Made by a program: the position numbers and the translations under genes
Source: an uncultured virus (IMG/VR IMGVR_UViG_3300029448_000020)
Taxonomy: Duplodnaviria; Heunggongvirae; Uroviricota; Caudoviricetes; Crassvirales
DNA length: 64,000 nucleotides
Strand: one strand, 5' to 3'
Virus record (IMG/VR): IMGVR_UViG_3300029448_000020
Span: 1-64,000 of that record
Notes under the pieces: model-generated
Told to the model about the DNA's origin: nothing
Database searches by the model: none
Seen by the model: the letters and a program-made list of their open reading frames with translations, nothing else
Shown here: positions 7,104 to 57,208 of the stretch, piece by piece
How the letters are laid out: every line of letters starts with the position of its first letter
How positions within the stretch are numbered: the first letter of the stretch is position 1

Positions 7104-7133
7104 AAAGGGAGCTTAACGGCTCCCTTTTTTTTT
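7104..7133. terminator. intrinsic terminator, probably bidirectional, between the convergent replication and late blocks
   Basis: AAAGGGAGC-ttaacg-GCTCCCTTT hairpin followed by a T run, with an A-rich flank on the other side. Confidence 0.85.
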
Positions 7134-7482
7134 AAGTATATCTTTTCATTTTCCTATCTATTTGCTTATTTCTTTTTTTATCAGATATTTCAACTCTTCT
7201 AGTTTCTCTCCAACCTGCTCCTGGTTTTGCTTTTTCTACAATTTTATAACCATCTTTGTATATTATTCTTCTACCACGTTGATCTTTTGTTTTAGCTCCA
7301 GACGTAAATACATGGTCCGCTGTACCTTGTTTTTCTGTATAAACATCTTTGTCATAAATTTTTCTAGGCTCTTTGCTGCCTTTAGCCTTTTCTGCGTGTG
7401 ATGGTTGAACTGTGGCATCAGATGTGAAAGGACTCCATCCTTTCATTTTAAAACCTTTTGTGTCTTTTTTAAAATCCGGCAT
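7132..7482 (-). CDS. basic small protein with FKMKGWSPF tag
   Basis: MPDFKKDTKGFKMKGWSPFT; Lys/Arg-rich. Confidence 0.7.
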   Translation of the reverse strand: MPDFKKDTKGFKMKGWSPFTSDATVQPSHAEKAKGSKEPRKIYDKDVYTEKQGTADHVFTSGAKTKDQRGRRIIYKDGYKIVEKAKPGAGWRETRRVEISDKKRNKQIDRKMKRYT

Positions 7483-7486
7483 AATA

Positions 7487-7831
7487 TTATTTCTTTTTAT
7501 TTATAAATGTATATCCTTTTGCTTCTAAGCTTTTTTGAAGAGCTTTGTTTTGTTTAGCTCTATTTTTAGCAATTTTATTAAATACATCAATTGCTTTTTT
7601 ACCTTTTTTTATTCCACCTGGACCAATCGGTATATCTGGAACAGTAGTTTTCATTATATTATATTTTCCATGTTGTTTCTTTTTAAAAGCTTTAAACTCT
7701 TGCAACTTAGATTTAAACTTCTTTATTGGGTTACTCTGCATTGGACTAGCTTCATTAGACATCCCCATTTTTAAAGGACTATCTTTTCTATATTTTGCTA
7801 AACCAGGTAGTATACATTTTCTACTTTTCAT
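7487..7831 (-). CDS. basic small protein (SPL/SPM motifs)
   Basis: Lys-rich ORF in the minus-strand operon. Confidence 0.6.
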   Translation of the reverse strand: MKSRKCILPGLAKYRKDSPLKMGMSNEASPMQSNPIKKFKSKLQEFKAFKKKQHGKYNIMKTTVPDIPIGPGGIKKGKKAIDVFNKIAKNRAKQNKALQKSLEAKGYTFINKKK

Positions 7832-7832
7832 A

Positions 7833-8231
7833 TTATTGAAATTTACTTAATACTATTGTGTCAACTGAGTTTTGTACTGTTTTTTTATCAGCATCAAGTT
7901 GAAACATTATATTGGGATTAAATCTTACTTTTTCTACACCGTTATCAAATATAATGATAGTTGGAATACCTGTTATATTGTATTCAGCTTGAGTATCAGC
8001 GTTAGCCATTATATCTAATCTATATTTTTCACATTCTTTTAGTTTTTCTAAATCTTCAAATTGATTAGCTTGATTCCAATCAGCCCAAAACTCTACAGCA
8101 ACTATATTTTTAGCTATTTTTTCATCAAAATCACCATTAATAAAGGTTTGACTAAATGCTGTACTGCACCCAAAAACAAACAACATCATTAAGACGTATA
8201 TGTAAGTTGAAATCTCTAATTCTTTTTTCAT
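7833..8231 (-). CDS. exported thioredoxin-fold protein lacking CxxC
   Basis: Signal peptide (AFS-Q), VEFWADWNQAN, YNITGIPTIIIFDNG cis-Pro loop. Confidence 0.75.
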   Translation of the reverse strand: MKKELEISTYIYVLMMLFVFGCSTAFSQTFINGDFDEKIAKNIVAVEFWADWNQANQFEDLEKLKECEKYRLDIMANADTQAEYNITGIPTIIIFDNGVEKVRFNPNIMFQLDADKKTVQNSVDTIVLSKFQ

Positions 8232-8572
8232 TTTCTTAAGTATTTTATTTCGTCTTTCATTTCATCTACTTCCTTTATTACCGCATCGATTTTATTTCTA
8301 GCCATTTGATCCTTCATGTTAAACTCCATACGGGTTGGAGGCCAAGTATTAGTGGCCGCTGGATCACCCATGTCAATAGTGTATATACCAGTACCTGGTT
8401 TAGGTAACTCTAAAGCTCTTTGTACTTTTATTTCTAAGTCATCAAACTTAGAATTGATTGTTGCCATTAAACCAAAGTAAGCAGAAACAACTGTAACAAC
8501 AGCTGCAACTATACTAATTAAGGTTTTTACACTAACTTGAAATTTACTGTTTTCTGATAATTCTTTAGTCAT
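8228..8572 (-). CDS. single-TM membrane protein with coiled coil
   Basis: Hydrophobic LISIVAAVVTVVSAYFGLMA segment followed by heptad-like sequence. Confidence 0.6.
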   Translation of the reverse strand: MTKELSENSKFQVSVKTLISIVAAVVTVVSAYFGLMATINSKFDDLEIKVQRALELPKPGTGIYTIDMGDPAATNTWPPTRMEFNMKDQMARNKIDAVIKEVDEMKDEIKYLRK

Positions 8573-9482
8573 TGCTATTATAATAAATTTTACCGTTTTC
8601 TATATATAATCCTTGCCTCACTTTAATTGCCTGCCCTTGTAGATTATATATTACACTATTTTCGCTCGATTTATCCACTACCTCTTGAATACCACTACTA
8701 CATGGTAAGCCAGTATCACAATCAATGTATTCAGTATTTATTATTTCAACGTATTCTATTATTGAATCAATTACTACTATTTCAACATATTCAGTATTAA
8801 CTATTGTATCATACTCAACAATAGTATCAGTAACAAAAAATTCTACGTATTCAATTTCTGTTTCTACAATAGTATCATAAACAATAACCTCAACCTCCTC
8901 TATAACATCTACAAACAAAGTATCTAAAACTTCAGCATATAACGTGTCAGTCACATATATATATTCAGGAACTAATACTTCTACTTCTTCTACTACAGTA
9001 TCAACAACAATCTGTGTTATATATTCAGTATTGTATATCGTGTCAAACTGAACATCAACTATCGTATCAATTACGATGTTTGTAATGAATTCAGTTTCAA
9101 CAATTGTATCAAACTGTATAATTGTTTCATAAACATAAAACGGGACTTCTAATGTGTCTGTTTCATATATATATTCTATTACTGGTACATCAACATAAAT
9201 AGTGTCACAACTTTCTTCTCCATAACTACCACAATCTGCCATTGTAGTTGGTACTGCCTCCGCTTCATCAGAAGCGTCAACACAATCATCCCACCCGTCA
9301 TTCAAATAAAAAAGATCTTGATATCCATTTGGAACACAACCGTTTGGTGAGTACTGTGTCCAGTTCGCTGGATCGTCTCCACAATAAAATCCATTTTGTT
9401 CTACACATTGTTCACATAAACTTAAGTCTTGTGCAAAAGTTAATGAACTTAAAAATATAAATAGTGATAATAGTTTTTTCAT
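8565..9482 (-). CDS. secreted protein with Cys-rich LDLa-like motif, DT(I/L/V) repeat stalk and T9SS-CTD-like end
   Basis: MKK..TFA-Q signal, YLNDGWDDCVDASDE, many DTI/DTL repeats, VIYNLQGQ..GLYIENGK. Confidence 0.7.
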   Translation of the reverse strand: MKKLLSLFIFLSSLTFAQDLSLCEQCVEQNGFYCGDDPANWTQYSPNGCVPNGYQDLFYLNDGWDDCVDASDEAEAVPTTMADCGSYGEESCDTIYVDVPVIEYIYETDTLEVPFYVYETIIQFDTIVETEFITNIVIDTIVDVQFDTIYNTEYITQIVVDTVVEEVEVLVPEYIYVTDTLYAEVLDTLFVDVIEEVEVIVYDTIVETEIEYVEFFVTDTIVEYDTIVNTEYVEIVVIDSIIEYVEIINTEYIDCDTGLPCSSGIQEVVDKSSENSVIYNLQGQAIKVRQGLYIENGKIYYNSND

Positions 9483-9494
9483 AATAATTTTAAT

Positions 9495-9677
9495 TTAGTA
9501 AGCTTCTCCCCTGGGTTTATGCAACTTAAGTCTTCTTTTCATTTCTTCTTCTTCTTTTCTTTTTTGTTCTTCAAACTCAGCAAACAACTTACGTTTTTCT
9601 TCATCAGTTAATTCATTGGATGTAAAAGGAGTATAATCCCTTAACATAAAGCACGTACCTTTTCTTTTTCTTTGCAT
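9495..9677 (-). CDS. small charged protein with tag variant (FMLRDYTPFT)
   Basis: Fits the operon spacing. Confidence 0.55.
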   Translation of the reverse strand: MQRKRKGTCFMLRDYTPFTSNELTDEEKRKLFAEFEEQKRKEEEEMKRRLKLHKPRGEAY

Positions 9678-9691
9678 ATTCTTATTATTAA

Positions 9692-10402
9692 TTACATTAA
9701 TCCAAATGGCGTTGATATTAGTCCACGTCCTCCTCTAGATGCTTCAGTGGCACCGCTAAGTGCATTTCCACCAGCAGATCCTCCACCACCACCAACACCT
9801 CCTGTTAACATACCAGTTACACCCGATACGCCTCCTTGTATAGCGCTCCACTTAGCTTGCTCAGCCGCTGCAGCTTGCTCTTGATAAGCAGCAACATCTT
9901 GTTGAGCCATACCTAAAAGCGTTGATTGCTTTTCCATCTCCATCTGTCTAGACATAACTTCACCTTGTCTTTCTTGATCTTGTATTTGAGCGGCCATATT
10001 TCTCTCTGCCATTTGGTTTTGTTGCTCTTGAGCTCCAATTTGCGCGGAAGTTTGTTGTGCTGCTAATTGTCCTTGACTAGCTAATGACTGAGCTACAGCA
10101 GCGATACCAGAACTTCCAGCTGCCTCACTCAATCCACTTAATATGTTTGATTGACTCTGAGCAAACTGTTGACTTTGTAGATTATACTGCTGTTGATTAA
10201 CAGTCAAATCTTCCATCATGTTTTCCATATCTAAATACGGATTACTAGTGTCCAACTGACGATACGTATCTTTTAAAGCTTCCATTTCTCTTCTGGCTTT
10301 CTTTTCTTTTTTCTCAGCCTTCTTTTTAGCTTTGTTAGCACTGTGTGCTCCTAGCGCGGCACCTCCAACCGCTATTATACCTCCTACTATAGCAAATGAC
10401 AT
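9692..10402 (-). CDS. putative ejection/internal virion protein, paralog 1
   Basis: Gly/Ala-rich hydrophobic N-terminus, Gln-rich coiled coil; clear similarity to 25530-26321. Confidence 0.65.
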   Translation of the reverse strand: MSFAIVGGIIAVGGAALGAHSANKAKKKAEKKEKKARREMEALKDTYRQLDTSNPYLDMENMMEDLTVNQQQYNLQSQQFAQSQSNILSGLSEAAGSSGIAAVAQSLASQGQLAAQQTSAQIGAQEQQNQMAERNMAAQIQDQERQGEVMSRQMEMEKQSTLLGMAQQDVAAYQEQAAAAEQAKWSAIQGGVSGVTGMLTGGVGGGGGSAGGNALSGATEASRGGRGLISTPFGLM

Positions 10403-10404
10403 AA

Positions 10405-10974
10405 TTAAACGTTTTGATTATTAATGGCACCAGTCATGCCAGTTATACCATCTTGAATGGCCTTCATCTTAACTCTTTCAGATTCTGCTTCTATTTCTCT
10501 TTGAGCAGTTAGCTCTTGCTGTGACATACCTAATAAAGTTTCATTTTTATCCATATTGCTTTGTTGAGACATCATTTCACCTTCAGCTTTTAAATTTTGT
10601 ATTCTATCTTTAAACTCAGCATTTCTTTTGTTATTTTTAGACTCTTGATCTCCAATGTCAGCCGACATTTCTTGTGCCATAATTTTGTTTTCAAAAGCTA
10701 ATGTGTTTGCTAATTCTGCCGCGCCAGATCCTCCTTGAGTTTCACGCAAAACACTTAGTGCGTTAGCTGTGTCTTGTTCGTGTTGTGTTTTTCTAGCATC
10801 CATTTCTAATAAACTAATCTTAAGATCTTCATATGGATTGTCCATGTGATCATATGGATTACTAGTATCTAAACTAGCATAAGCCTCTTTATTGGCTTGT
10901 AGTTCTTGTTCAGCTTTTTTTAGCTTTTTACCTTTTTTATCAAAAGGTGTCCATCCTTTTTGTTTGTAAGCCAT
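10405..10974 (-). CDS. ejection-protein paralog with MAYKQKGWTPF N-terminus
   Basis: Shares LDTSNPY and TLLGMSQQ with 9692-10402 and 25530-26321. Confidence 0.65.
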   Translation of the reverse strand: MAYKQKGWTPFDKKGKKLKKAEQELQANKEAYASLDTSNPYDHMDNPYEDLKISLLEMDARKTQHEQDTANALSVLRETQGGSGAAELANTLAFENKIMAQEMSADIGDQESKNNKRNAEFKDRIQNLKAEGEMMSQQSNMDKNETLLGMSQQELTAQREIEAESERVKMKAIQDGITGMTGAINNQNV

Positions 10975-10976
10975 AA

Positions 10977-12020
10977 TTAAAATATTAAATAATTAAATCC
11001 AAATTTTGTTTCAAATAATTCTTTGCCCCAGTATTTCATGTGTGTTCCTTCTACAAATAAACCTAAGTGTTTTGTTATTCTTGTCCCAAATACTAAACCA
11101 CCATCCCATTCAATCTTGCTGTCTCCATACTCATAAGAATATTTATCTAAACCATAATGATATGGCAGACAATTAAACCAAGCATGTACCCACGTCGTAG
11201 GAGTATATTTATAATAAGCCAAGCCAATTACCGCACTAAGTTCTCTTTGTAAACCTAATTTATCAAGTTCACGTTCGTTGAAACTAGCTACTGCGTCACC
11301 GAAGTAGTGGTGGAAAAACTCGTCGTTTGAGGTAGCGATAAGTACGGAATCTCCACCACTAACATCGTACCAATTTTGATTAACATAATTTCCTTGAATC
11401 CACATCTCTGGAGCGTAGCCAAAGTCTTCAGCTAAATCTTGAAACGTTGATTCACCTGGAACCCAAAAATCTTCTATAGGATTTACTCCATACACTGGAT
11501 GTATTCTAGCTACAGCTCCAACTGTTAAATCCCAATTACCTTTATTTATTCTAAACCTAGTATCAAAAGACATAAACTTTAAGTTTACTCTTTGATTATC
11601 TGTATACTGAGCTTTTGTCACACAACTATTACCTAAATATCTTAACCAAAAGTTTTGCTCTGTAAACTCATCACTCCTATTTCTTATAAATGAATAGTTA
11701 AAAAGATATTCCCAACCAACAGCATTACCAATAGTAACATTGTCAGCTATATTATCTTCAGTTCCATAATACCAAGTTTTAACTTTATGTTCATAGTCAA
11801 ATCTAGCTATTTTACGTAAACCTATAGTTAAATTATAATCGTAAGGATTAATCCATGTAACATCTTCGTAACCTTTATCAATAGCTACATAATCTTCTCT
11901 TTCAGTCATAGACGTTCCCATTGTCATCGATGTATAAAATGTAGAATATTTGAAGAAGTCTTTTATTTGTGCGTTACCTATTGTACTAATAAGTACAAAT
12001 AATAAAATTAATTTTTTCAT
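10977..12020 (-). CDS. putative outer-membrane beta-barrel protein
   Basis: Signal peptide GNA-Q, aromatic-rich alternating strands, C-terminal KFGFNYLIF. Confidence 0.6.
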   Translation of the reverse strand: MKKLILLFVLISTIGNAQIKDFFKYSTFYTSMTMGTSMTEREDYVAIDKGYEDVTWINPYDYNLTIGLRKIARFDYEHKVKTWYYGTEDNIADNVTIGNAVGWEYLFNYSFIRNRSDEFTEQNFWLRYLGNSCVTKAQYTDNQRVNLKFMSFDTRFRINKGNWDLTVGAVARIHPVYGVNPIEDFWVPGESTFQDLAEDFGYAPEMWIQGNYVNQNWYDVSGGDSVLIATSNDEFFHHYFGDAVASFNERELDKLGLQRELSAVIGLAYYKYTPTTWVHAWFNCLPYHYGLDKYSYEYGDSKIEWDGGLVFGTRITKHLGLFVEGTHMKYWGKELFETKFGFNYLIF

Positions 12021-12311
12021 TTATGTTCTTGATTTAATTTCTTTTCTTAAATTAGCTATTCTTTGTTCATATCTTTTAACAGCTGATTTATCACCTCTTT
12101 CTCTAGCTTCTGCTAATTCATTATCCATTATACCATATATTTCACCTTCCAATCTAGCTATACTCATCTTTTGTCTTTTAGTTTGAGGAGTCATGTCTGG
12201 GTGAGTGTGATGTCCTTTTTTAGTAGGATCTTTATAACCTCTAGTTTTTGTTTGAGGTTCATATTCTTTTTTCTTAGTATATGGGCTGTAGCCCGCCATT
12301 TTAAATGCCAT
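12021..12311 (-). CDS. basic small protein with MAFKMAGYSPY tag
   Basis: N-terminal motif; operon fit. Confidence 0.65.
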   Translation of the reverse strand: MAFKMAGYSPYTKKKEYEPQTKTRGYKDPTKKGHHTHPDMTPQTKRQKMSIARLEGEIYGIMDNELAEARERGDKSAVKRYEQRIANLRKEIKSRT

Positions 12312-12313
12312 AA

Positions 12314-12811
12314 TTATATAGTTTTATATGTTATTGTTACCTGTTCTTCACATTCAATAGCTTCAGCTATTCTTGAATAAATTCTTCTATATGCTTGAGT
12401 CGATTTTCCTATAAAACCGTTCTTCTTGATTTTGTTGTTTTCTTGGGAGTCTCCGACGAGCAAGCAACCCGCTGTATGTTCGTCAGTATTTCCACAATGA
12501 ATGAGAATATGCTCAAAATTAGGAACGTCAAGAACGTGAAGCATACCAATATGAAAATCAGAAAAACGCTTAGAATACTTTGAGTGAAATCCACCCTCTT
12601 TTCTAAGAGCAAGTTTATACGTTCCATTAGGTATTCTAGTTTCTCCATATACTTTTTCTTCTCTATATTCATCTTCAAGTGTATAAGCTAAAAATGTTCT
12701 TTTACATCTATAACCTTCTGAATGTGGTGCTGGTGACAACCTGTCTACTTCGAATAATATACCATTTGTACTATCAGTACCACTACTTATTCTAATTACT
12801 TCTAATTCCAT
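12314..12811 (-). CDS. DUF5675-like (L,D-transpeptidase-like His/Cys) protein, candidate cell-wall enzyme
   Basis: YTLED, TRIPNGTY, ILIHCGNTDEHTAGCLLVG. Confidence 0.75.
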   Translation of the reverse strand: MELEVIRISSGTDSTNGILFEVDRLSPAPHSEGYRCKRTFLAYTLEDEYREEKVYGETRIPNGTYKLALRKEGGFHSKYSKRFSDFHIGMLHVLDVPNFEHILIHCGNTDEHTAGCLLVGDSQENNKIKKNGFIGKSTQAYRRIYSRIAEAIECEEQVTITYKTI

Positions 12812-13108: not shown

Positions 13109-13110
13109 TA

Positions 13111-14643: not shown

Positions 14644-14644
14644 T

Positions 14645-14968
14645 TTATTGAGAGTCTTTCAAGTCTTGAGCCGATGGTGCACCTTCACTTCCTGGTTTTC
14701 TCATTTTTTCACCTGATCCAGCTTTTATTCTTTTTCTTTTTGCGTGTATATTGTCCCATAAACCCTTTTTCTTTTTCATGGCTGACTCAGCCTTACTAGC
14801 ATATATAGCCTTACGTTGTGCGTCAGACTTATATTTTTTCATAGGACTATCTTTCATTTCATCAATGTGCTCTTCAATGATTTCAGCCTGCTTGCCATGA
14901 GCTTTAACTGCACTTTTTAATTGATCTACAACTTCTTGTAAATCTTTGTATTTCATTTTAAATGCCAT
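14645..14968 (-). CDS. basic small protein with MAFKMK tag
   Basis: MAFKMKY, DSPMKK, GLWDNIHAKRKRIKAGSGEKMRKPG. Confidence 0.65.
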   Translation of the reverse strand: MAFKMKYKDLQEVVDQLKSAVKAHGKQAEIIEEHIDEMKDSPMKKYKSDAQRKAIYASKAESAMKKKKGLWDNIHAKRKRIKAGSGEKMRKPGSEGAPSAQDLKDSQ

Positions 14969-14973
14969 AATTT

Positions 14974-15159: not shown

Positions 15160-15240
15160 TTATTTTTTTATTATTTTAAAAATTACTAAACCAACTATTG
15201 CAGCTGTTGTGCACATAGGACAAGGGCATATAACTAACAT
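15160..15240 (-). CDS. 26-aa hydrophobic micro-protein (MLVICPCPMCTTAAIVGLVIFKIIKK)
   Basis: Fills the gap between two genes; TM-like segment with a basic tail; translated by hand. Confidence 0.4.
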   Translation of the reverse strand: MLVICPCPMCTTAAIVGLVIFKIIKK

Positions 15241-15524
15241 TTCCATCTACGCCTAGCAGCTTTACCTCTTTCACCAGTCCAACCTCTTGATCTAGCGCAA
15301 AACGATTTTCTACGTTTAGCAGCTTTACTACCTGGTTTAACATCACCAGTCACAGCTGTTTTCAGCTTGCTACCTGGATTTTTACGTTTATATGTTTCAA
15401 CGCCCTTCTTTGTCATACCGGCGCCTTCTTCAACTGTTCTGAAGTTTCTACCTTTACCTTTTGTAGTTTTTCTAGGTTCATTGTCCTTGGTAAATGGAGT
15501 AAACCCTTTTTGTATATAAGCCAT
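15234..15524 (-). CDS. basic small protein with MAYIQKGFTPF tag
   Basis: KRRKSFCARS...ARRRWKC C-terminus. Confidence 0.7.
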   Translation of the reverse strand: MAYIQKGFTPFTKDNEPRKTTKGKGRNFRTVEEGAGMTKKGVETYKRKNPGSKLKTAVTGDVKPGSKAAKRRKSFCARSRGWTGERGKAARRRWKC

Positions 15525-24471: not shown

Positions 24472-25548
24472 TTAAGCTAATTTTTCGTTAGAAATGCCTT
24501 GCTCTTTTGTTGGATTAGGTCTATTCTTTTTACCCATATTCCATTGTTTTTCTAAAAATGATGTAAAGTATTCAGCTATTTCATCATCTAGTACACTTTT
24601 GTATTCTTTTCTTTCTATAATTGCATCAGCTATTTTCTTTGATTCTTCATAGTTGATACCATCATTTGGATTAACACCTTCTAGTTGTAGTCCTAATTTA
24701 GCGTATGTATTAGATGATATTTTATCAACAAAATCATTGTAAAATATTCTACCTGCAACCATCTCATCATAAATTAAAGACTTAGGATTATCTGCTCCAT
24801 CAATTATATTTCTTTTTACTTGTTGTTTAGCTGCAGCTCTAGGAAAAGACATGTTGTCAGCTGGATTAGTTTGAGATGATTTACTTATATAATTATTACC
24901 CATTGAGGTAACAGCATCTTTAGTTGCTTTGTCTACTAATTTTATTTTACTTTTTAAATTAGGTATAGCAACCCACTCTTCTCCACTACTATCTATAGTC
25001 TGAACTAGTTTATTTCTTTCTGTTATGTATTGATCTGCGTACAACTTTTGTGTGTCTATATTAGCGTTGTTATACTCATCGTCTAGCTTAACTAATGTTT
25101 CTTTAGCTATTTCTGCAGACTTAAAGTTAGGCATCATTATCCCTAATTCTTCTTTGTGAGGACAATGTTGTTCACCTGGGCAAACTTTTTCTACTAATCT
25201 AACTTCATCTTTTAGTAAACGCATAACAGCTTTACCATCGGGTGAATCACTCCACGTGTTCATTAAAGCTTTTGTGTTGTAAGCTGCGGCAACATCTTGT
25301 CTAAAGTTTTTGTAAGCACCAATGTTCTGAGCCCACATATTTAATTGTCTTTTTATTAGACCTCTTTTAGTTTTGTCACCATCTACATACTCTTGTTTTT
25401 TAGCTGCTAAGGATTCAGATATAGCGTTATACTCACCACCTGGTAGTTCACCGTCTGTATCTAGCACTGTTCTAACAAGTGCATCATGTTCTGGATTTGT
25501 TTTTCTATTTAACATATTAAAATATTTTATTATGAAACACCTGGACAA
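24472..25548 (-). CDS. putative internal virion protein
   Basis: Helical ORF between the ejection paralog and the giant protein; true start may be MLNRK. Confidence 0.55.
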   Translation of the reverse strand: MSRCFIIKYFNMLNRKTNPEHDALVRTVLDTDGELPGGEYNAISESLAAKKQEYVDGDKTKRGLIKRQLNMWAQNIGAYKNFRQDVAAAYNTKALMNTWSDSPDGKAVMRLLKDEVRLVEKVCPGEQHCPHKEELGIMMPNFKSAEIAKETLVKLDDEYNNANIDTQKLYADQYITERNKLVQTIDSSGEEWVAIPNLKSKIKLVDKATKDAVTSMGNNYISKSSQTNPADNMSFPRAAAKQQVKRNIIDGADNPKSLIYDEMVAGRIFYNDFVDKISSNTYAKLGLQLEGVNPNDGINYEESKKIADAIIERKEYKSVLDDEIAEYFTSFLEKQWNMGKKNRPNPTKEQGISNEKLA

Positions 25549-26321
25549 CTTGGGTAATTTGCGTAATATTCTGCTCTTTCTTCGCTTTCTTGTCTTAACC
25601 TATCAAACTCCGCTTGTGCTTCTGGTGATATTGTATCTTCCAATGCGGCGCCTTTTCTTTCATTACCAAACTCTCCTTCAGACGAAGAAAATCTTTCACC
25701 AGAAGAAGCACCAACTCTACCTTTAAGTATACTACCAACAGCTGTAACACCTCCAGCAATTGCATCCCATTTTGCTTGATTCGCTGCAGCAGCTTGTTCT
25801 CTATAAGCTGCTACCTCTTGTTGCGACATTCCAAGCAATGTTGACTGTTTGTCTCTTTCTGCGTTTCTAGACCATATTTCACCTTCTCTTTCTTTATCTT
25901 GCAAATTAGCTGCCATATTTCTTTCAGCCATTTGATTCTGTTTTTCTTGTTGACCAATTTTAGCCGCAGATGATTGTGAAGCAATTTGACCTTGAGTAGC
26001 TAGAGCTTGTGCGACAGACGCTATACCTGAGCTACCCGCAGCTTCTCTTAATCCACCTAAAACGTTAGCTTGGCTTTGTCCAAATTGTTGCTTTTCTAGA
26101 TCGTATTGTCTTTGGTTTATTGTTAGATCCTCCATTGTATTTTCCATATCAGTGTAAGGATTGCTAGTATCTAAAGAAGAATAAGCGTCTTTTAATCTAT
26201 CCATTTCCACCTCAGCTTTAGAAGCTTTTCTTTCAGCTTGTCTTTTAGCCTTATTAGCGCTAATTGCGCCTAACGCAGCACCACCAACAGATATCCCTAA
26301 ACCTACTAATGCAAATGACAT
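25530..26321 (-). CDS. putative ejection/internal virion protein (syntenic copy)
   Basis: MSFALVGLGISVGGAALGA plus Gln-rich coiled coil; position after the tail genes. Confidence 0.65.
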   Translation of the reverse strand: MSFALVGLGISVGGAALGAISANKAKRQAERKASKAEVEMDRLKDAYSSLDTSNPYTDMENTMEDLTINQRQYDLEKQQFGQSQANVLGGLREAAGSSGIASVAQALATQGQIASQSSAAKIGQQEKQNQMAERNMAANLQDKEREGEIWSRNAERDKQSTLLGMSQQEVAAYREQAAAANQAKWDAIAGGVTAVGSILKGRVGASSGERFSSSEGEFGNERKGAALEDTISPEAQAEFDRLRQESEERAEYYANYPSCPGVS

Positions 26322-26322
26322 A

Positions 26323-26877
26323 TTAAGAGTATCTCATGTTATCTTTCCAGCCCTTGCTTTTTCTATCTTCGAATTTATTTAACTTCATATCTTTTTTGAT
26401 GTCCTTTTTACCTGCTCTATAGCTATCACCATATAAAACTCCAGCTGTTTCACCAACATCTCTAGACATATCACCAAGGGCTCTAGCTTTTGCTATTTGC
26501 CCATATTTAGCCGTACCTTTTCCAGATGCGGCATCATAGGCTCCTCTAACTAATATAGCATCAGTTTTGTAAGGAGTATAACCTTCTTTTTTAGGCATTG
26601 GACCTCCACCATATAAAGCTCCACCTGGAGGAAGATTTGATACATTCATTTTACCCATCATTCTTTGATTTGCCATCATTTGTGCTTCTCGACCAGTCAT
26701 ACCACCACCTTCACCTGGTTGTATTCCAACCGCTTGCTGTGCACCACCACCAAACACCTTGTTTATTCCACCAACCATTTTTTTACCAAGTCCTTTTAAA
26801 AACTTATTTGGTGATGGTTTGTTACCTGATCTCATTGAAAAAGGAATTGAACCTCTACTTTTACTTGTTCTCGCCAT
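26323..26877 (-). CDS. Gly/Lys/Met-rich low-complexity protein
   Basis: PFSMRSGNKPSP and GYTPY tag-like motifs. Confidence 0.6.
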   Translation of the reverse strand: MARTSKSRGSIPFSMRSGNKPSPNKFLKGLGKKMVGGINKVFGGGAQQAVGIQPGEGGGMTGREAQMMANQRMMGKMNVSNLPPGGALYGGGPMPKKEGYTPYKTDAILVRGAYDAASGKGTAKYGQIAKARALGDMSRDVGETAGVLYGDSYRAGKKDIKKDMKLNKFEDRKSKGWKDNMRYS

Positions 26878-40508: not shown

Positions 40509-42029
40509 TTACTTCATTAACATAAAGTTGTTTGCACCTTGTGTGATTAAACATCTTTCTGATAAGAAATGTACTGACATTGCATCAAGCGCTGATGTAG
40601 CAGCTCCAACTGAACCAGTAACCCAAGATTTCATCTTTCGGTCATCAGTTTGAGAAGCTCTATATCTAACGTGTAAGAATGGTCGCTTCATGTTTGAACC
40701 AACTTGTTGGTCATAAACAGTAGACATACCAGCTGGTATCATAACACCTCTGATTGCATTTGCACCAGCAGCATCATTAATTCCACCTCTTGTAGCTTTG
40801 TCATTTAAGTATCTGAAGTCAGATTTATAGAAGTCATAAGAACCTCTTCTAAATCCTGAGAAACCTAAATTTAATGCCATATTCTCGTCGTTGTCAAATA
40901 CTCCGTAAGAAGTACCTCCAGCTCCGTAAGAATTCATTGAAGCAAGCATGTCATCGATAGCTAAACTAGTAGCACGATTAACAAACATCATGTATTCTTC
41001 AATAGCACCTTGTTTGTCAAACTCAGCTAATATAGCATCGAATTCAGCTAAATCAGTAGCAGCGTTAACACCAGTTACACCAGAAGTAACATTACCTCTT
41101 GAAGTAATAGCAGCAAATAAACCTTCTGTACCAACTCTATTAGCACCACCAGCAGAAGAACCTGCTAATATAGTAGCACCATCAAGTAATGATCCAGCTT
41201 CGTTTAATTCACCTTCTAACATTGCCATTTCAACGTGATCAGTAAATCTTAGTCTAGTTTCAGATTCAGCTTTTAAATACCAAAGATATCCAGAAGTACC
41301 ATCTTCAGCTGAAACTTCAACCCAACCAATTCTAGATGCATCAGATCCTGATACTTCGTAGTAATCTTTCATTATAATTGGTTTGTTACTAAAGCTTTTG
41401 AACGATGGTTCATTACCTCCTCTTTGCTCAGTAGTATTAGTAGTACCAGCATCAGCTACATAACTCATACCTTTACCATACTCAGAACCAATAACTAATA
41501 AAGTACTTTCCTTTGAACCTGTAGCAGCTGGTACAGCACCAGAAGCTTCAGCTGTATAAGGAACTACATCTAAAACAGCGCCAGCTACAACTGTTACTAA
41601 ACATTTGTAAACTCCAGCTGAGTTAGCTATAATAACCATATCGTTAACTCTAACACCGTGATTTGCAGCTGTCATACTTGTCTGATCGATGTCATCTTCA
41701 ATTGTAAACTGTGAAACGTTAGCTGTACCACCGTCACCAGTAGCTGCACCCGCTGTAGCAGAGTTTACGTTACCTACATAAGATAGATGTAATCTACCTT
41801 GTTCTGACCAAATGACCTGATCTGCGGTCATAGCCTCTTCTGCGCCGACTTGTGCTAAGAAACCAGAAATTGTTCTAGGTCCGAAAACCTCAGCTTCTTG
41901 CTCCATTAAGTCTGGCACGTATTGTTGTCCCCATCCACTTGTGGACGAAAGATCTAAATAGTTTGATGATAATGCTTGTTGCACTGGTGCAGGCACACTA
42001 TTCAAACTACCTCCTGCAGTAATTGCCAT
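40509..42029 (-). CDS. major capsid protein
   Basis: WSEQGRLH, GYLWYLK, LNLGFSGFRRGSYDFYK, FLHVRYR; follows portal and scaffold and precedes a terminator. Confidence 0.8.
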   Translation of the reverse strand: MAITAGGSLNSVPAPVQQALSSNYLDLSSTSGWGQQYVPDLMEQEAEVFGPRTISGFLAQVGAEEAMTADQVIWSEQGRLHLSYVGNVNSATAGAATGDGGTANVSQFTIEDDIDQTSMTAANHGVRVNDMVIIANSAGVYKCLVTVVAGAVLDVVPYTAEASGAVPAATGSKESTLLVIGSEYGKGMSYVADAGTTNTTEQRGGNEPSFKSFSNKPIIMKDYYEVSGSDASRIGWVEVSAEDGTSGYLWYLKAESETRLRFTDHVEMAMLEGELNEAGSLLDGATILAGSSAGGANRVGTEGLFAAITSRGNVTSGVTGVNAATDLAEFDAILAEFDKQGAIEEYMMFVNRATSLAIDDMLASMNSYGAGGTSYGVFDNDENMALNLGFSGFRRGSYDFYKSDFRYLNDKATRGGINDAAGANAIRGVMIPAGMSTVYDQQVGSNMKRPFLHVRYRASQTDDRKMKSWVTGSVGAATSALDAMSVHFLSERCLITQGANNFMLMK

Positions 42030-42052: not shown

Positions 42053-43219
42053 TTAATTCTTTTTTTTAATCTTAAAGGATCTGTTTTTTAAATCAGCAGA
42101 AGATTGACCTAACACCCTAACTTTTAAACCACCAGCATTTATTTCACCGTGAGTTTGTCTAGGATTAAGATCAATATTTTTATCTTTAGCAATAGATTCT
42201 TTTATTGCATCAGCTTTTCCTTGTTCGTAGAAATGCTTAGCGATAGTATCAGCATTCATTGCTGTAAATAAAGATTTGTGATATCCTTCAGCATCATCAA
42301 TAGTTGCTTTGTCTTCACCAACAAACTTGTTGATAAAATTATTAATATCACCTTGCGTGTTTTTTACTTCATCAACATCTTTAACATTAAACCTAAATTT
42401 TTTGTCTCCAACTTCGTAATCAAAACCTTTGAATTCTTTATTGAAAACTTTGTCAGTTTTTTGTAAAAATGATTTTTTAGTAGTTTCACTTAATCTGCGT
42501 TGTTCTTCAGATTCCTTTTTGTATCTATTAAAGAAGTTTACAGCTTTTTGTTGATCTTCTGTCAATCTACTTCCAGCTTTAATTTCTTCATAGTATTTAG
42601 ACTTTTGCCTGTCCAAGTGGGCTCTAGCCTCGGCAACTTGCTCTTTGAGGGCTATTCTTTTTCTCTTAATGTCTTTAGGATCGTCTTCCTCTTCATCATA
42701 ACCAAATGATTCTTGTAATAAAAATCCTCTTTCTTCTGGTGTTAGATGAGATTTAGTTTTACGATAATATTCATCAAGTACATCAGAGTCATCCATTTTA
42801 GATAAATCTCTGTTTAATTCTACGTAGTCTCTTAAATCACCACCTGTTTCTTCCATGAAACTTATAAGTTTTTCAACCTTTTCAGGTAATGGCCTTCCAG
42901 TTTGTTGAGCTTCAACAATAGCTTCTTGAACTTCTTCTTCAACTTTAACTACCTCTTCGTTTGTAACATCTTGTACAACTGGTACTTCTTCTTGCTCAAC
43001 AACTTTTTCTTTGACTTCTGGTTCAGCATTGACTACGACCACCTCTTCTTCGACGGGTTTTTCTTCTACCTTTTCGTCTGTTACTGGTGGTTTTGATAAA
43101 TCAACTTTTGTAATAGTTTCTTTTGGTTTTTGCATTTTAACCTTAGTTATATTACTCTTTTTTTCGTTTTTAGTCTCTTCGACTTTTGGTTCTTCAACCT
43201 TGTTTTCTTTTTTTGCCAT
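42053..43219 (-). CDS. capsid scaffolding-like protein
   Basis: Acidic low-complexity N-terminus and coiled coil; between portal and capsid. Confidence 0.65.
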   Translation of the reverse strand: MAKKENKVEEPKVEETKNEKKSNITKVKMQKPKETITKVDLSKPPVTDEKVEEKPVEEEVVVVNAEPEVKEKVVEQEEVPVVQDVTNEEVVKVEEEVQEAIVEAQQTGRPLPEKVEKLISFMEETGGDLRDYVELNRDLSKMDDSDVLDEYYRKTKSHLTPEERGFLLQESFGYDEEEDDPKDIKRKRIALKEQVAEARAHLDRQKSKYYEEIKAGSRLTEDQQKAVNFFNRYKKESEEQRRLSETTKKSFLQKTDKVFNKEFKGFDYEVGDKKFRFNVKDVDEVKNTQGDINNFINKFVGEDKATIDDAEGYHKSLFTAMNADTIAKHFYEQGKADAIKESIAKDKNIDLNPRQTHGEINAGGLKVRVLGQSSADLKNRSFKIKKKN

Positions 43220-49184: not shown

Positions 49185-49213
49185 TGTATTTAATTTTATT
49201 TAATTATATTTAT

Positions 49214-49899: not shown

Positions 49900-49911
49900 T
49901 TTATTATTTTT

Positions 49912-50765: not shown

Positions 50766-50768
50766 CTA

Positions 50769-51107: not shown

Positions 51108-51225
51108 TTGTTTATATTTTTATGATTATTAATTAATTGATTTTGATTTTTTGTTTATTGTTTATGGTTTATAGTTTATGTATAATCTACTTTAATAGAT
51201 ATTACATACTTTTTATAAATAGTAA

Positions 51226-53035: not shown

Positions 53036-53081
53036 GGTATTATATTTTATTTGATTAAATTAAATTGTCTTGTAGGTATTA

Positions 53082-53414
53082 TCACCTATTCTTTTTCAAA
53101 TTAAGCATTTTTCTTAATAATTTTGCTTCAGGGTCTTTTGGGTCCATACCTCTTAGCTGTTCTCTTATTTTATTTTTTTGCATCTCATTAAGAGGTTTAG
53201 CTACATTTTTGTTGTATTGATGAACTTTTCTCCTATGTTTTCTTTCTTGCTTCTTAGTCATTTTATCAGTATCATCATCTCTCACTATATCCTCATTTTG
53301 ATCTTTTAAAAACTTTATATCTTCTTTAGTATAGTGCTTTGGATATTTCTTCTTAGGTGGATCAGTTCTCTTTAATAATGGAGATTTTCCAAAAAATTTA
53401 CTTTTAAACGTCAT
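53082..53414 (-). CDS. basic small protein (MTFKSKFFGKSPL)
   Basis: Tag variant; Lys-rich. Confidence 0.6.
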   Translation of the reverse strand: MTFKSKFFGKSPLLKRTDPPKKKYPKHYTKEDIKFLKDQNEDIVRDDDTDKMTKKQERKHRRKVHQYNKNVAKPLNEMQKNKIREQLRGMDPKDPEAKLLRKMLNLKKNR

Positions 53415-53781
53415 TGTTGTTATTTTTTTGTTCTTGTTCTTTTTCTAACTCTTTTCTTGCTTTTTTCTGTTTTCTTTTTTGATTTAGGTGTTTTCCTATT
53501 TTATAAGCTCCATGCGCAAGTGCTATAGTACCTATTGGTCCTTTTGCAAAACGCAACAATGATTTACCAGGTGTTTTTAAAGCTTGAATACCTTTTCCAA
53601 CAGCTATAGCACCAGTGGCACCTAAAACTGCTTTTCCAGCAACAGGTGCAGATTTAAATGAATCAACTGCCATGTTAGCTATATGTGGTGCCATTTTGTA
53701 ACCAATAGCACCTGTAATCAAATGTTGAGCAATTGATTTAAATGGGGATTTTTTAAGAAATTTTTTACTAAATTTTGACAT
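53404..53781 (-). CDS. basic small protein (MSKFSKKFLKKSPF)
   Basis: Tag variant; Gly/Ala amphipathic helices. Confidence 0.6.
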   Translation of the reverse strand: MSKFSKKFLKKSPFKSIAQHLITGAIGYKMAPHIANMAVDSFKSAPVAGKAVLGATGAIAVGKGIQALKTPGKSLLRFAKGPIGTIALAHGAYKIGKHLNQKRKQKKARKELEKEQEQKNNNNDV

Positions 53782-53782
53782 G

Positions 53783-54028
53783 TTATTTATATTGTTCGTT
53801 TTGACTTAATGCAAATTTAGCACCTGCAGATCCTCTTCCGCCTCGAGCTGCTAATGCATGATTTTTAGCTTCAACAGGATCTTGCCCAGCTCTAACTTCA
53901 TATGCTGTCATTGGTGATTTTTTTCTACAGCTACCTTTACTATAAGCTTTTTTACCTGGAGTAGGTTCATAACCTTTCCAACATCTAGATTTAGTAAAAG
54001 GACTCCAGCCTGATTGTTCGTATGCCAT
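53783..54028 (-). CDS. small protein with MAYEQSGWSPF tag and CWKGY motif
   Basis: N-terminal motif; operon fit. Confidence 0.65.
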   Translation of the reverse strand: MAYEQSGWSPFTKSRCWKGYEPTPGKKAYSKGSCRKKSPMTAYEVRAGQDPVEAKNHALAARGGRGSAGAKFALSQNEQYK

Positions 54029-54033
54029 ACTTT

Positions 54034-54510
54034 TTAATTTTTATCGTATTGCTCGTTACCATAACTACCTGGTCCTGTTTCCATCATTTTTTGTAGCTCT
54101 CTTAGTCTTTTAAGTTCAGCATCTGTAATAGTACCAGCATCTTTTTTAGCCTGTAGCATTTTAACAGTGTCATGAGGTGATTTCTTCTTTATTTTAGGAA
54201 CCTTCTTGTCATTCTTCTTCATCATAGGTGAAGTTATTTGTCCCGCGAATCCATGATCTGGATTTGCTTTCATTTCACCTTTAGTTCTCTTCTTCATTGG
54301 TGAATCTAGGATTTTTTTCTGTAAGTGCTCTGGTAGTTGATCTTGATCACCTACTAAAGGTTTACTCATTGGAGATGCATCATATTGCTGTATTCCACCC
54401 ATAGCTTTAAATGGAAAACCTTCTCCAGTTTTTTTATTAGGACTGTGTTTCATTTTAAAACCACTAGGTTTGCCCATAAAACCGTCAGTATCTTTTTTAA
54501 ATGTTGGCAT
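54034..54510 (-). CDS. basic protein with FKMKHSP and repeated SPM motifs
   Basis: MPTFKKDTDGF parallels MPDFKKDTKGF of 7132-7482. Confidence 0.65.
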   Translation of the reverse strand: MPTFKKDTDGFMGKPSGFKMKHSPNKKTGEGFPFKAMGGIQQYDASPMSKPLVGDQDQLPEHLQKKILDSPMKKRTKGEMKANPDHGFAGQITSPMMKKNDKKVPKIKKKSPHDTVKMLQAKKDAGTITDAELKRLRELQKMMETGPGSYGNEQYDKN

Positions 54511-54528
54511 AGTTTTGTTTTTTATTAT

Positions 54529-54930
54529 TTAATATTTATTTTTATGTTTTCCCATTGGAGAAGGGCGTGGTCTGTCTCTATTAACTAAATCACTCATTCT
54601 TTTTCTATCATCTAATCTATCTAACTCTTGATCTTCCTTCGCCATTTGTCTTCTTTTAGCACTAGCCTCAGGGTTTTCAAGCATTTTCTCAAGATTTTTT
54701 ATTTTTCTTTGTTTTCTTGCTATACCTCTAGTTACACCTTTATCTTCTTTTCTTTTTATACCTTTCTTTTTTCTATCAATCTTTTTTTGTAAATATTCTT
54801 TCTCCGCTTCAACATCAACATCTTGCGAAGCATATCTCATTTCTATTTCTCGTTTATCTCGCTGATACTGCATGTCTTTCGCAGAATCAGGTCTACTAAA
54901 AGCTTCAAAACCTCTCATTTTAAATGCCAT
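54529..54930 (-). CDS. charged protein with MAFKMRGF tag
   Basis: N-terminal motif; operon fit. Confidence 0.65.
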   Translation of the reverse strand: MAFKMRGFEAFSRPDSAKDMQYQRDKREIEMRYASQDVDVEAEKEYLQKKIDRKKKGIKRKEDKGVTRGIARKQRKIKNLEKMLENPEASAKRRQMAKEDQELDRLDDRKRMSDLVNRDRPRPSPMGKHKNKY

Positions 54931-54948
54931 AATTGTTTTTTTAAATTG

Positions 54949-55320
54949 TTATTCTTTTTCAGCCTGTATTGCTGATTGTTCCCATGGATGATCTGGATGT
55001 CCCTCAGGTAATCTGCCAGCGGGTCCATCTATAACCTTTTCTCCATCAACTTCTTTTCTAAAGTATATTTTATCTTCCCACATAACCCACTCATCACCAT
55101 ACTGTGCTCTTCCAGATTCCATGTCGTTCATGTGTTTGAGTTCGTGTTTTATTGTTTTGTTGTACTTTTCTGTGCCTTCTTTTAATTGAGGATCTACAAA
55201 TATAGTACCATCGTTATTGGCTTCAGCTAAAATACTACCTTCTAAATCTTTTTTTATTATAGGTGTATTTTGTGGGGTACGATATCCTCTTCCTTCATTT
55301 CCTAGTTTAAATTTAGCCAT
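54949..55320 (-). CDS. small zincin-like metallopeptidase
   Basis: LAEANNDGTIFVD, TIKHELKH, HPWEQSA. Confidence 0.65.
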   Translation of the reverse strand: MAKFKLGNEGRGYRTPQNTPIIKKDLEGSILAEANNDGTIFVDPQLKEGTEKYNKTIKHELKHMNDMESGRAQYGDEWVMWEDKIYFRKEVDGEKVIDGPAGRLPEGHPDHPWEQSAIQAEKE

Positions 55321-55322
55321 AA

Positions 55323-56186
55323 TTACATATCGTTTTCTTCTCTATAGTTTTCTATAAATTCACTTAATTTTTCAATTTCTTCATCTGTAGGATTACCTAA
55401 TGCTTGTCTATCCTCTTCAGTTAAACCACCTTCTTCCTCACTTTTACCAAGAAACTTTTGATATCTTTTGAGTTGCTCCATACCAGTTTCACCCCACACT
55501 TTACCAGTTTTTGCTGTATATTGTTCTTTTTCAGCATCTGATTGTTCTCTAAATCCACGTTGAGTTGCTAGTCCTTTTTTCCACTCAGCTAGTGATGAGT
55601 GAACACCGTTGAGATTTAAATCTTTTCCAGAATGTATTTGTCCATCGTTATACATTCTTTCTTTACCCATCCAATCTGTTCCAGATTCTATCCCAAATGA
55701 ATAACCTTTACTTAAATCAAAATTTAATAATGATGCATCACCACCTTTCTGTCTAACTAAATTAGCTTGGTTTCTCATGAACTGTTGGAATTGAGGAGTA
55801 TTATATACAGCTTCAAAATGTACACCTTGAGGCCCTGGATGCGATCCTGTTCCACTGGCAGTTGTTCCAGCGGGCGCTTGCATTCTGAATGCTCGCATAT
55901 ATAATTCTTCCCCAATACGTTGTTGAGCCATTTGCTCTAATGTTAACTCTGTTGGTTCACCATAACGACCTGGATTATTTATTGAACCAAATCTTTGCCC
56001 GTATTTCCACCACTTAAGTTGTAAGCCGATGCCAGTTTTATTAAGTTTTGGTAACCACTTACCTCTACCAGACTTTTGCATTTGATTCTGGTATTGTACA
56101 TACTCTGCTGCATTTTCTTGTTCAGAAATTTGCATCGGTGAGTCCTTTTTTCGTGGTTTTGGAAAACCTTTTTGCTTATACGCCAT
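55323..56186 (-). CDS. hypothetical protein with MAYKQKGF tag
   Basis: N-terminal motif followed by DSPMQ. Confidence 0.65.
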   Translation of the reverse strand: MAYKQKGFPKPRKKDSPMQISEQENAAEYVQYQNQMQKSGRGKWLPKLNKTGIGLQLKWWKYGQRFGSINNPGRYGEPTELTLEQMAQQRIGEELYMRAFRMQAPAGTTASGTGSHPGPQGVHFEAVYNTPQFQQFMRNQANLVRQKGGDASLLNFDLSKGYSFGIESGTDWMGKERMYNDGQIHSGKDLNLNGVHSSLAEWKKGLATQRGFREQSDAEKEQYTAKTGKVWGETGMEQLKRYQKFLGKSEEEGGLTEEDRQALGNPTDEEIEKLSEFIENYREENDM

Positions 56187-56197
56187 ATTGCTATTGT

Positions 56198-57208
56198 TTA
56201 TTGTCCAAAAAACTCTCTAATTGGTCTGTCCCAGTCACTAAAGTTTATTTGACTTAAATCTAGGTTTAAACCTTTGCTTTTTTTCTTTTTCTTAACATTA
56301 CCTTCATCTCTTCTTACTGGTTGTGGTCTTGATGGTGATCCATCTCTATCAAAACCTTCAATAGTGTCATCATATCTTAAATTATACTTATCGTAGAATT
56401 TTTTTCTAGCGTCAGTATTAATCTTTGGAGCATCATCCCATGGTATTTTACCAGTTTTTTCAGGAATTACCTCTCCTCCAGTTATTTTACCTACACTAAC
56501 TTTACCTTCTTTTTCACCTGTAAGTTTAGCTTCAGGTAATCTTGTTGGTATTGCGCCTTCACCGCTAGGAATATTTAATAAAAAGTTAGTTAAATCAGCA
56601 TTTTTATATTTTCCAAATTCACTTAAGTCTGAAAAACCTTCTTTACCTTCTTTTCCTAAGTAAGCAGCGCCACTAGTCCATCTATTACTATATCCTTTTC
56701 CACTACTTTTAGCTCTAACTCCTTGAAACTCGTTCGGTCTAAGTTCTATTTGAAAATCTCCTTTGTCTTTTGAGCCTTGAGTAGCTTTTAATAAACGCTC
56801 TCTTATTGCTTTATCTTTAGTAGATAAGTTTTTAGGGTTCATGCGTTTTATTTGCTCTATGTCTTCTTGTTTTAAATTGAAAGTTCCACCACCTCTTGAT
56901 GAAGCAGTATCTTGGCTTGGAGTAAATTGATCACCTTGAGAGTAATTACCTTGCCAATCATCGCCTGCAAATTCTTTATTATCAAAATAATCACGCTGTC
57001 CTCCTCTAGGAAAAGTATCACCTGATTCATGAGAGTATTCACCACCAGACATAGGAAGTCTTTCACCTGTAATTTTACCGTAATCGTCAATCTCTGTACC
57101 AGCATAGTCAGATGTACCACTAGCCATCTGCTCTAATTCTATACTCTTATATAAAGTGGGTTTCTTTTTACCATGAAACCCACCATATCCTTTCATTTTA
57201 AAGGCCAT
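56198..57208 (-). CDS. hypothetical protein with MAFKMKGY tag
   Basis: N-terminal motif; Gly/charged body. Confidence 0.65.
   Translation of the reverse strand: MAFKMKGYGGFHGKKKPTLYKSIELEQMASGTSDYAGTEIDDYGKITGERLPMSGGEYSHESGDTFPRGGQRDYFDNKEFAGDDWQGNYSQGDQFTPSQDTASSRGGGTFNLKQEDIEQIKRMNPKNLSTKDKAIRERLLKATQGSKDKGDFQIELRPNEFQGVRAKSSGKGYSNRWTSGAAYLGKEGKEGFSDLSEFGKYKNADLTNFLLNIPSGEGAIPTRLPEAKLTGEKEGKVSVGKITGGEVIPEKTGKIPWDDAPKINTDARKKFYDKYNLRYDDTIEGFDRDGSPSRPQPVRRDEGNVKKKKKSKGLNLDLSQINFSDWDRPIREFFGQ

Follow-up and report, generated by a model that had tools for sequence, protein, structure and literature searches.

What does a short N-terminal peptide do when it recurs on many dissimilar late proteins of one phage? 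The question is raised by an uncultured 67-kb marine podophage (IMG/VR record IMGVR_UViG_3300029448_000020), of whose 67,197 bases we analyzed positions 1 to 64000 (the window). From about 7.1 to 58 kb, its minus strand encodes a portal (43246-45648), a large terminase, a capsid-type protein (40509-42029), GroEL/GroES, and tail proteins. A sequence-only reading had pointed to 16 open reading frames (ORFs) with a shared N-terminal tag; all 16 were found on the minus (late) strand with the starts and peptides given there. We find that the tag is real, selected as protein, clade-wide, and made of two parts. The reading toward which we lean is that the first (part A) would load cargo into the prohead and that a co-loaded zinc protease (zincin) would cut at the second (part B).

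A two-part leader on dissimilar late proteins

Part A, M-x-[FY]-K-[MLQ]-K, is strictly N-terminal, and part B, S-[PA]-[LMF]-[KNQ], repeats internally, at module joints. A shared tag is thus present as described earlier, but not as a single fixed 11-mer, being bipartite with a variable spacer. A loose part-A pattern matched 10 of 54 late-strand and 0 of 32 early-strand ORFs (2000 within-ORF shuffles, mean 1.8, maximum 7), and a strict one had 7 matches in the window (shuffle null mean 0.23, maximum 2), both patterns being drawn post hoc from the same data. With a position-specific scoring matrix (PSSM) built from 42 tags found on other contigs, 8/54 late ORFs and 0/33 opposite-strand ORFs scored ≥8 bits. 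SP-type sites numbered 17 in the 2315 amino acids of the 16 tagged ORFs, compared with 3 in the 14317 amino acids of the remaining late ORFs.

The bodies behind the leader are dissimilar, as had been noticed: the 16 ORFs are without mutual BLAST similarity at an E value of <0.01. Their description as basic or disordered suits the set as a whole (13 of 16 with net positive charge; order-promoting residues at 0.20 versus 0.30) but not ORF 54949-55320, a predicted folded zinc protease. Pfam names only one of the 16 above cut-off (DUF6321), and PHROGs matches two, both of unknown function.

The two parts occur together, part B standing at residues 7 to 45 in 69 of 177 A-tagged non-protease proteins (shuffles, mean 3.0, maximum 8). 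In ORF 14645-14968, two part-B sites part three modules, two of which stand alone behind the tag in relatives; modules of this ORF are also found, with no tag, in cyanophages and pelagiphages. The part-A alanine uses all four codons (same-codon value of 0.46 versus 0.43 expected), as does the glycine (0.26 versus 0.37), the serine of part B is encoded by both TCN (65) and AGY (45), and exchanges in part A are conservative (F/Y and M/L/Q); conservation confined to the DNA, which the sequence-only reading had named as the counter-case, is therefore not what is found. Part A is absent from core late genes (0/72 capsid, 0/58 portal, and 0/24 GroEL).

Spread of the tag in a marine podophage clade

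A search of IMG/VR with a degenerate DNA pattern, written for the most frequent form of the tag, found at least 139 stretches, yielding 117 distinct proteins; among the matches listed, the tag stands at the first Met in 115 of the 117. Other genes of the window's clade are present at 76 of 78 loci with wide flanks. The pooled loci hold at least 227 tagged proteins (including a few terminase starts), whose bodies fall into 106 clusters, including 82 singletons. Among 25 relatives, 21 of which had been found through a tag, 131/997 late-strand and 3/444 opposite-strand ORFs carry it, and eight genomes with a stand-alone protease that were reached via the giant ejection-type protein have 1 to 6 tagged proteins each. 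No tagged small protein was seen in cultured relatives, viewed as stretches of 47 to 67 kb each out of 61 to 77 kb (the protease search below took whole records).

The large terminase (45645-47879, minus strand) begins, clade-wide and within its first 15 codons, with M-Y-[KE]-Q-[STN]-L..P-I-K, which is like the Y-x-Q variant of the tag; this start is unchanged in protease-less and fused genomes and differs in cultured relatives. Outside the clade, a 50-amino-acid basic ORF with an exact part A (L040, 10001-10153) lies on a 120-kb contig without a capsid match, by chance or by transfer.

Relatives of the capsid and portal proteins among GenBank phages are those of Cellulophaga, Flavobacterium, Maribacter, and Tenacibaculum phages and of one uncultured podovirus, all at <60% identity. 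The window portal is 34% identical to that of phi38:1/phi40:1, the structural gene order is the same, and GroEL/GroES are carried. In its available text, Nishimura 2017 describes group 2 as phi38:1-related marine Flavobacteriaceae phages with phi38:1 structural homologs and often GroEL (PMC5332604). Judged by these sequences, the window phage fits that group, and its host would, from its relatives alone, be a member of the Flavobacteriaceae. A capsid tree (quick method) separates the tagged clade from cultured relatives, with long branches and an unsure topology; the PDB holds no sequence relative of the capsid protein.

A predicted zinc protease is either tagged or fused

In ORF 54949-55320 (123 amino acids), H59, E60, H63, and E114 are invariant across 53 sequences. 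Its structural model is confident, with helices at residues 51 to 69 and 112 to 121, a beta-rich insert between them, and disorder at residues 1 to 12 (predicted local distance difference test [pLDDT] of <50). The profile matched selecase MJ1213 (E value of 0.0014), and the top seven VIA-align rows (Z of 5.0 to 6.5) include PprI, abylysin, selecase, and ArdC; Foldseek with the model gave no match at an E value of ≤0.001, and Pfam gave no family above cut-off. From sequence and model, the ORF is a predicted minigluzincin-like HExxH zinc protease, the matches being weak but consistent. It may share with the minigluzincins selecase (MJ1213) and abylysin, and with IrrE/PprI-type proteases, an HExxH...E fold of ∼110 amino acids (VIA-align Z of 5.1 to 6.5), and differs from them in having 8 to 18% structural identity, a beta-rich insert between the helices, and a phage-restricted family.

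The protease is present in 23/23 region-covering genomes of the window's subclade and is the sole tagged gene found in all of them, and tblastn against 50,697 GenBank phage records, tagless relatives included, gave no match to it. Stand-alone copies begin with part A in 56 of 59 cases. A profile search found 612 relatives, and among the best 150 of these 612 were 37 proteins of >1000 amino acids, all homologous to the giant ejection family and with the protease near the C terminus. The 25 records reached via the giant protein comprised 5 with the fused form only, 13 with the stand-alone form only, 1 split, 1 contig-end fragment, and 5 without a match; of 33 further partial records, 18 had short forms only. 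No examined genome holds the fused and stand-alone forms together, and no part-A protein was found in fused-type genomes (0/4). Part A is thus found where the protease is not fused to a virion protein, which is how an address would be expected to behave.

C-terminally extended proteases have an SP-hydrophobic site ≤50 amino acids past the domain in 42/53 cases versus 45/1363 windows of giant-protein bodies, and a part B right after the domain is what would be expected of the protease's own cut site. Part B sits directly past the protease's last helix and is often trailed by acidic stretches. An AlphaFold2 model of a natural protease-plus-B protein (P0020; 75 rows) gave the B segment a pLDDT of 50 to 62 and no strand; docking in cis was not seen, and the model is uninformative.

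Some further features of these proteins were observed. In one sub-lineage, a P-I-T-[NSQ]-[RK]-[VA] leader precedes the protease and B-tagged proteins (P0009, P0012, and P0031; G037 14119, G039 45989, and G042 26414) and is possibly a second address. A giant ejection-type protein contains a P-loop kinase (Zeta_toxin/AAA_33) domain (P0052, 1723-1868), and a protease-led polyprotein has a second zincin-like stretch (P0078, 463-518). The C terminus of the window's giant protein (15544-15750, minus strand) has zinc-finger-like Cys/His repeats, seen in 10 of 29 listed homolog ends; in other lineages, the giant protein ends in the protease or in a basic tail.

Loss of protease and tag

One genome of the clade, G043 (97% complete, region intact), has neither the protease nor any tag, and its copies of the same small basic modules start at the module itself. 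For eight small module families, stand-alone-protease genomes have the leader in 40/68 (narrow pattern) to 53/68 (wide pattern, a count inflated by long upstream stretches) copies, compared with 0/8 in G043 and 0/14 in G045/G046. B-type sites on small proteins number 2/13 in fused-protease genomes and 0/8 in G043. In G019, the only tagged gene is a divergent protease. The proteases of G019 (11960), G055 (11674), and G057 (7582) are divergent, with E values of 1e-17 to 1e-18 versus ∼1e-30 to 1e-50 elsewhere; such proteases lie in genomes with few tagged substrates, and relaxed selection is possible.

Six genomes with no protease match (G049, G061, G063, G078, G079, and G081) were left uncounted because their groEL region is missing, and nine other nonmatching records are also left out of the loss count. 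A further candidate for protease loss, G035, proved to be a chimera, its tail/ejection genes being duplicated and its sequence broken after groES, and was dropped. This IMG/VR record (L369 to L372) is rated 99% complete and has a split groEL.

Pilot proteins, scaffold, and cargo bodies

ORF 10405-10974 is 41 to 44% identical to 25530-26321 and 9692-10402 (44% to 25530-26321 over 164 amino acids). The window thus has three pilot paralogs (9692-10974 and 25530-26321, minus strand); the nonchimeric relatives examined gave one match each. The pilot family matches phi40:1 gp099 (HHalign, 97.2%, E value of 4e-11), a virion protein by tandem mass spectrometry (MS/MS; GenBank note). Part B occurs in the first 40 amino acids of 7/20 pilot orthologs versus 2/1181 proteins of 53 other families, often immediately before the hydrophobic segment that opens untagged orthologs. 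Capsid and scaffold proteins are nearly devoid of it there (1/72 and 0/93, respectively), so that the cut seems to be cargo-only, unlike in T4.

The scaffold C terminus has a conserved ..K-F-K-I-K.. (F in 85%, K in 92%, and I in 92% of 83), and the part-A PSSM gives ≥5 bits for 64% of these 83 tails, compared with 0% of capsid, portal, and terminase tails. Part A may therefore mimic the C-terminal strand of the scaffold, a tentative proposal drawn from sequence likeness. The scaffolds of tagless cultured phages start in a part-A-like manner, with F-K-M-K in elemoA (L141, 23810-24829) and M-A-F-F-K-K in phi40:1 (L140, 33086-34288). A complex prediction for the capsid protein (72-row alignment) and a 32-residue tag (39 rows) scored 0.00, which is no verdict and was used neither way.

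As to the cargo, a module family whose members carry part B in some genomes is homologous to phi40:1 gp080, an MS/MS virion protein (E value of 1e-17, with biased composition), and this homology supports a head location of the family. The most likely cargo role, by analogy with T4 internal proteins, would be DNA charge neutralization. When looked at in detail, the variable effector cargo of the sequence-only reading is not borne out: the bodies that can be identified comprise the protease, a paralog of the pilot protein, and small basic modules, and no host-targeting or other effector was identified among them.

Features of the window

The tagged genes and their late-gene context are collected in Table 1. 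Genes for signal-peptide-like exported proteins (8565-9482, 10977-12020, and 7833-8231) interleave with tagged genes at 7833-12020 (minus strand). The motif ATGTAA[CT][TA]ATA has four copies on the late strand (39520, 34668, 27390, and 15541) and none on the other; three of the four lie immediately upstream of late genes, and the motif is a candidate late promoter. Two short N runs (at 6255 and 63876; 20 bases in total) lie outside the tagged genes.

Table 1. Leader-bearing genes and associated late genes of the window
Feature	Position	Strand	Elements and remarks
Tagged basic ORF, 116 aa (amino acids)	7132..7482	-	A 7441-7452, B 7423-7434
Basic ORF, 114 aa, B only	7487..7831	-	B 7769-7780, 7736-7747
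Tagged ORF, 60 aa	9495..9677	-	A 9639-9650, B 9621-9632
Untagged second pilot/ejection-protein paralog	9692..10402	-	Hydrophobic N-terminal helix
Pilot/ejection-protein paralog, tag in place of N-terminal hydrophobic helix	10405..10974	-	A 10957-10968, B 10939-10950
Tagged basic ORF, 96 aa	12021..12311	-	A 12294-12305, B 12276-12287
Tagged three-module ORF	14645..14968	-	A 14951-14962; B 14837-14848, 14774-14785 between modules
Tagged DUF6321 basic module	15234..15524	-	A 15507-15518, B 15489-15500
Giant ejection-type protein, 2963 aa	15544..24435	-	Putative virion location, from synteny with phi40:1 gp101 and weak similarity
Pilot ejection protein, untagged in window	25530..26321	-	Homolog of phi40:1 gp099
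Weakly tagged basic ORF beside pilot gene	26323..26877	-	A 26830-26841, B 26803-26814
Putative major capsid protein, candidate part-A receptor	40509..42029	-	
Putative scaffold	42053..43219	-	Named by place between portal and capsid genes; F-K-I-K strand 42062-42079
Weakly tagged basic ORF	53082..53414	-	A 53394-53408, B 53373-53384
Weakly tagged basic ORF	53404..53781	-	A 53758-53772, B 53737-53748
Tagged ORF, 81 aa	53783..54028	-	A 54011-54022, B 53993-54004, 53906-53917
Tagged multi-module ORF	54034..54510	-	A 54448-54459, B 54433-54444, 54364-54375, 54292-54303
Tagged basic ORF, 133 aa	54529..54930	-	A 54913-54924, degenerate B
Predicted minigluzincin-like zinc protease	54949..55320	-	H59, E60, H63 at 55132-55146; third ligand E114; A 55300-55311
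Tagged ORF, 287 aa	55323..56186	-	A 56169-56180, B 56130-56141
Tagged ORF, 336 aa	56198..57208	-	A 57191-57202, no clear B

Discussion

Head loading and protease recognition had been offered as alternatives for the tag; both gain support and appear as two halves of one leader, so that the earlier proposal is partly supported. We propose that part A forms an amphipathic strand of hydrophobic residues and lysines, imitating the C-terminal strand of the scaffold, and that it recruits proteins into the assembling prohead, where its partner may be the scaffold or the capsid site that the scaffold uses. The predicted zinc protease 54949-55320 would enter the prohead by the same address (in basal relatives, through fusion to the giant ejection protein instead) and would cut at part B (S-P/A-hydrophobic-K/N/Q), thereby removing leaders, freeing the natural N terminus of the pilot, and splitting multi-module precursors. 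Gluzincins habitually cut before a hydrophobic residue, and if this protease follows that habit, the scissile bond would be Pro-hydrophobic. The small basic, probably DNA-binding polypeptides would stay in the head as the scaffold departs; the two parts may be coupled because cargo tethered by part A would exit with the recycling scaffold unless freed at part B. We are fairly confident that the tagged proteins reside inside the head, and nearly as much so that part B is cut by the zincin.

Among the alternatives, loading without cleavage fares best, although we consider it unlikely. Parts A and B would then both be binding motifs, part B being an avidity motif or an SPKK-type DNA-binding turn, known from the histone literature, and the zincin a passenger, an effector ejected against host proteins. 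Binding motifs also occur in disordered linkers and at N termini, so that the junction position alone proves no cut; part B, however, is often found before acidic stretches, on pilot N termini, and right past the last helix of the protease, and B-type sites are kept on some small proteins in fused-protease genomes and absent from those of G043. In favor of a passenger role, the available text of Iyer 2017 notes that N4 vRNAP has a zincin domain yet is packaged without being processed, and it considers an effector role for some domains of this kind (PMC5512222).

Only slightly less well placed, and likewise improbable, is protease docking, in which parts A and B form one extended recognition sequence, part A on the protease is an autoinhibitory propeptide, and processing or destruction takes place in the infected cell or after ejection. 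The coupling of the two parts (69/177), the disordered N terminus of the protease in the model, and the packaging of untagged homologs in phi40:1 all fit this account, but it leaves unexplained why the protease has part A exactly when it is unfused to the ejection protein, as well as the likeness of part A to the scaffold tail.

The leader might instead address host machinery, as an N-terminal degron/unfoldase handle or a GroEL-targeting peptide that clears or folds surplus basic proteins, and we give this little credence. Part A loosely fits ClpX N-terminal motifs, it is strictly N-terminal (115/117 at the first Met, among the matches listed), one tagged cluster adjoins groEL/groES, and the N terminus of a T4 head protein reportedly directs proteins to GroEL; against this, GroEL is also present in the tagless G043, Panino, elemoA, and MW202828, most bodies look disordered, and part B at internal joints and on pilots is left unaccounted for. 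Least credible of all is a nucleotide-level cassette, an optimized translation-start or recombination element among late genes with the peptide as a by-product, for although Lys and Phe codons are skewed to AAA and TTT and positions -13 to -11 and -3 of tagged genes are more A-rich than those of core late genes, the Ala, Gly, and Ser codons vary freely, exchanges are conservative, and the core late genes lack part A.

Several observations weigh against loading by part A with cleavage at part B. Codon choice for Lys and Phe in part A is less varied than in the background (same-codon uniformity of 0.81 to 0.83 versus 0.64 to 0.71); this skew, together with the A-rich upstream region, suggests strong translation and leaves the motif unexplained. 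The part-A PSSM is also passed by the tails of two exported-protein families (33% of 12 and 25% of 8), alternation of hydrophobic residues and Lys being common in AT-rich genes, and part A is constant whether the scaffold tail is FKFKIK, SFKIRK, or KLRIK. The fold matches of the protease are middling (best Z of 6.5). In fused proteases, part B occurs on the N-terminal side in 25/52 cases but coincides with the domain's own T-P-I element, so that this site is not independent. In a wider set, part B is found on 9/42 pilots, leaving 33/42 without it. The identifiable bodies are pan-marine basic modules that cyanophages and pelagiphages also carry without the tag (81 and 69 records). These modules thus do not need the tag, being untagged there, in the packaged phi40:1 gp080, and in G055, where a divergent stand-alone tagged protease is accompanied by mostly untagged modules. 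G045 and G046 have contig gaps in the protease region, so that only G043 is securely protease-less, and the three form one lineage, nested among protease-bearing genomes and sister to G019. With one lineage, contig gaps, and the G035 chimera, the loss contrast is weak; the coupling, which is not strict, is supported by about two contrasts (the G043 lineage and the cultured outgroups).

How does the proposed system compare with known ones? The T4 prohead protease gp21 cleaves after Glu, and no conserved Glu is present in the leader logo; a PHROGs scan of 56 window proteins (52 late-strand) found no prohead-protease family. The T4 capsid targeting sequence (CTS) loads internal proteins into the scaffold core, and, as far as the available text describes it, the present system resembles T4 CTS/gp21 in that a short N-terminal peptide is conserved on late proteins that are small and basic but otherwise diverse, with proposed scaffold loading and removal by a co-packaged protease (PMC3012670). 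The differences are another sequence, a bipartite layout, repeats at internal joints, a podovirus-type head, and a 120-amino-acid zincin as the candidate protease. The system thus works like CTS/gp21 in outline yet fails its Glu-site and capsid-cleavage features. In the accessible description of SPN3US gp245, a short repeated cut motif (AXE sites) is likewise found in the propeptides of many head proteins and the protease processes itself; there, the capsid and portal are also cut and the motif ends in Glu (PMC10052503).

Zincin (MPTase) domains are known from phage polyvalent virion proteins, including the C-terminal domain of N4 vRNAP and P1 DdrB (Iyer 2017, PMC5512222; PMC13434306), and phi14:2 gp65 has one (bioRxiv 10.1101/2020.03.07.982082), all as given in the available texts. 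As in these proteins, relatives of the window have an HExxH domain with a downstream Glu fused to a giant virion protein that it is proposed to process, and the fused form is an instance of the known theme of zincins in virion polyproteins (Iyer 2017, PMC5512222). Unlike in them, the domain is usually free-standing with its own N-terminal address, as in the window, and its candidate site lies on dozens of other proteins; the accessible descriptions of the N4 vRNAP, DdrB, and phi14:2 gp65 zincins give neither a site motif nor a set of substrates in trans.

Podoviruses offer a further comparison in their ejection proteins. P22 gp7 is said to be processed by host oligopeptidase A. P22 ejection proteins need the scaffold for procapsid entry, a scaffold dependence that the present system would share; in the available text, a shared portable tag is undescribed, and the protease is the host's (PMC4992974). 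For crAss001, cargo proteins binding the portal and tail are described, with no shared tag in the text available (PMC10172136). In the literature covered (largely open-access main texts), we found no account of the tag, and none of a free zincin that is tagged and has a visible site.

Our evolutionary account is a tentative one, namely, that an abundant uncultured marine podophage clade turned an ejection-fused zincin into a free, self-addressed, cargo-only maturation protease and then spread a scaffold-mimicking address and the Ser-Pro cut site of this protease over dozens of unrelated genes. If the proposed mechanism is true, these phages would possess a two-component, plug-in code for loading and release, about 12 residues long, under which neither capsid nor scaffold is cut, and portable head addressing in the style of T4 would extend to podoviruses. 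The long-proposed processing role of virion-polyprotein zincins (Iyer 2017) would gain a site motif and a substrate list, testable in vitro without phage culture. The short loading tag and the compact sequence-specific protease could also serve as tools, and a location would be assigned to the products of many small, basic hypothetical genes in common marine phages.

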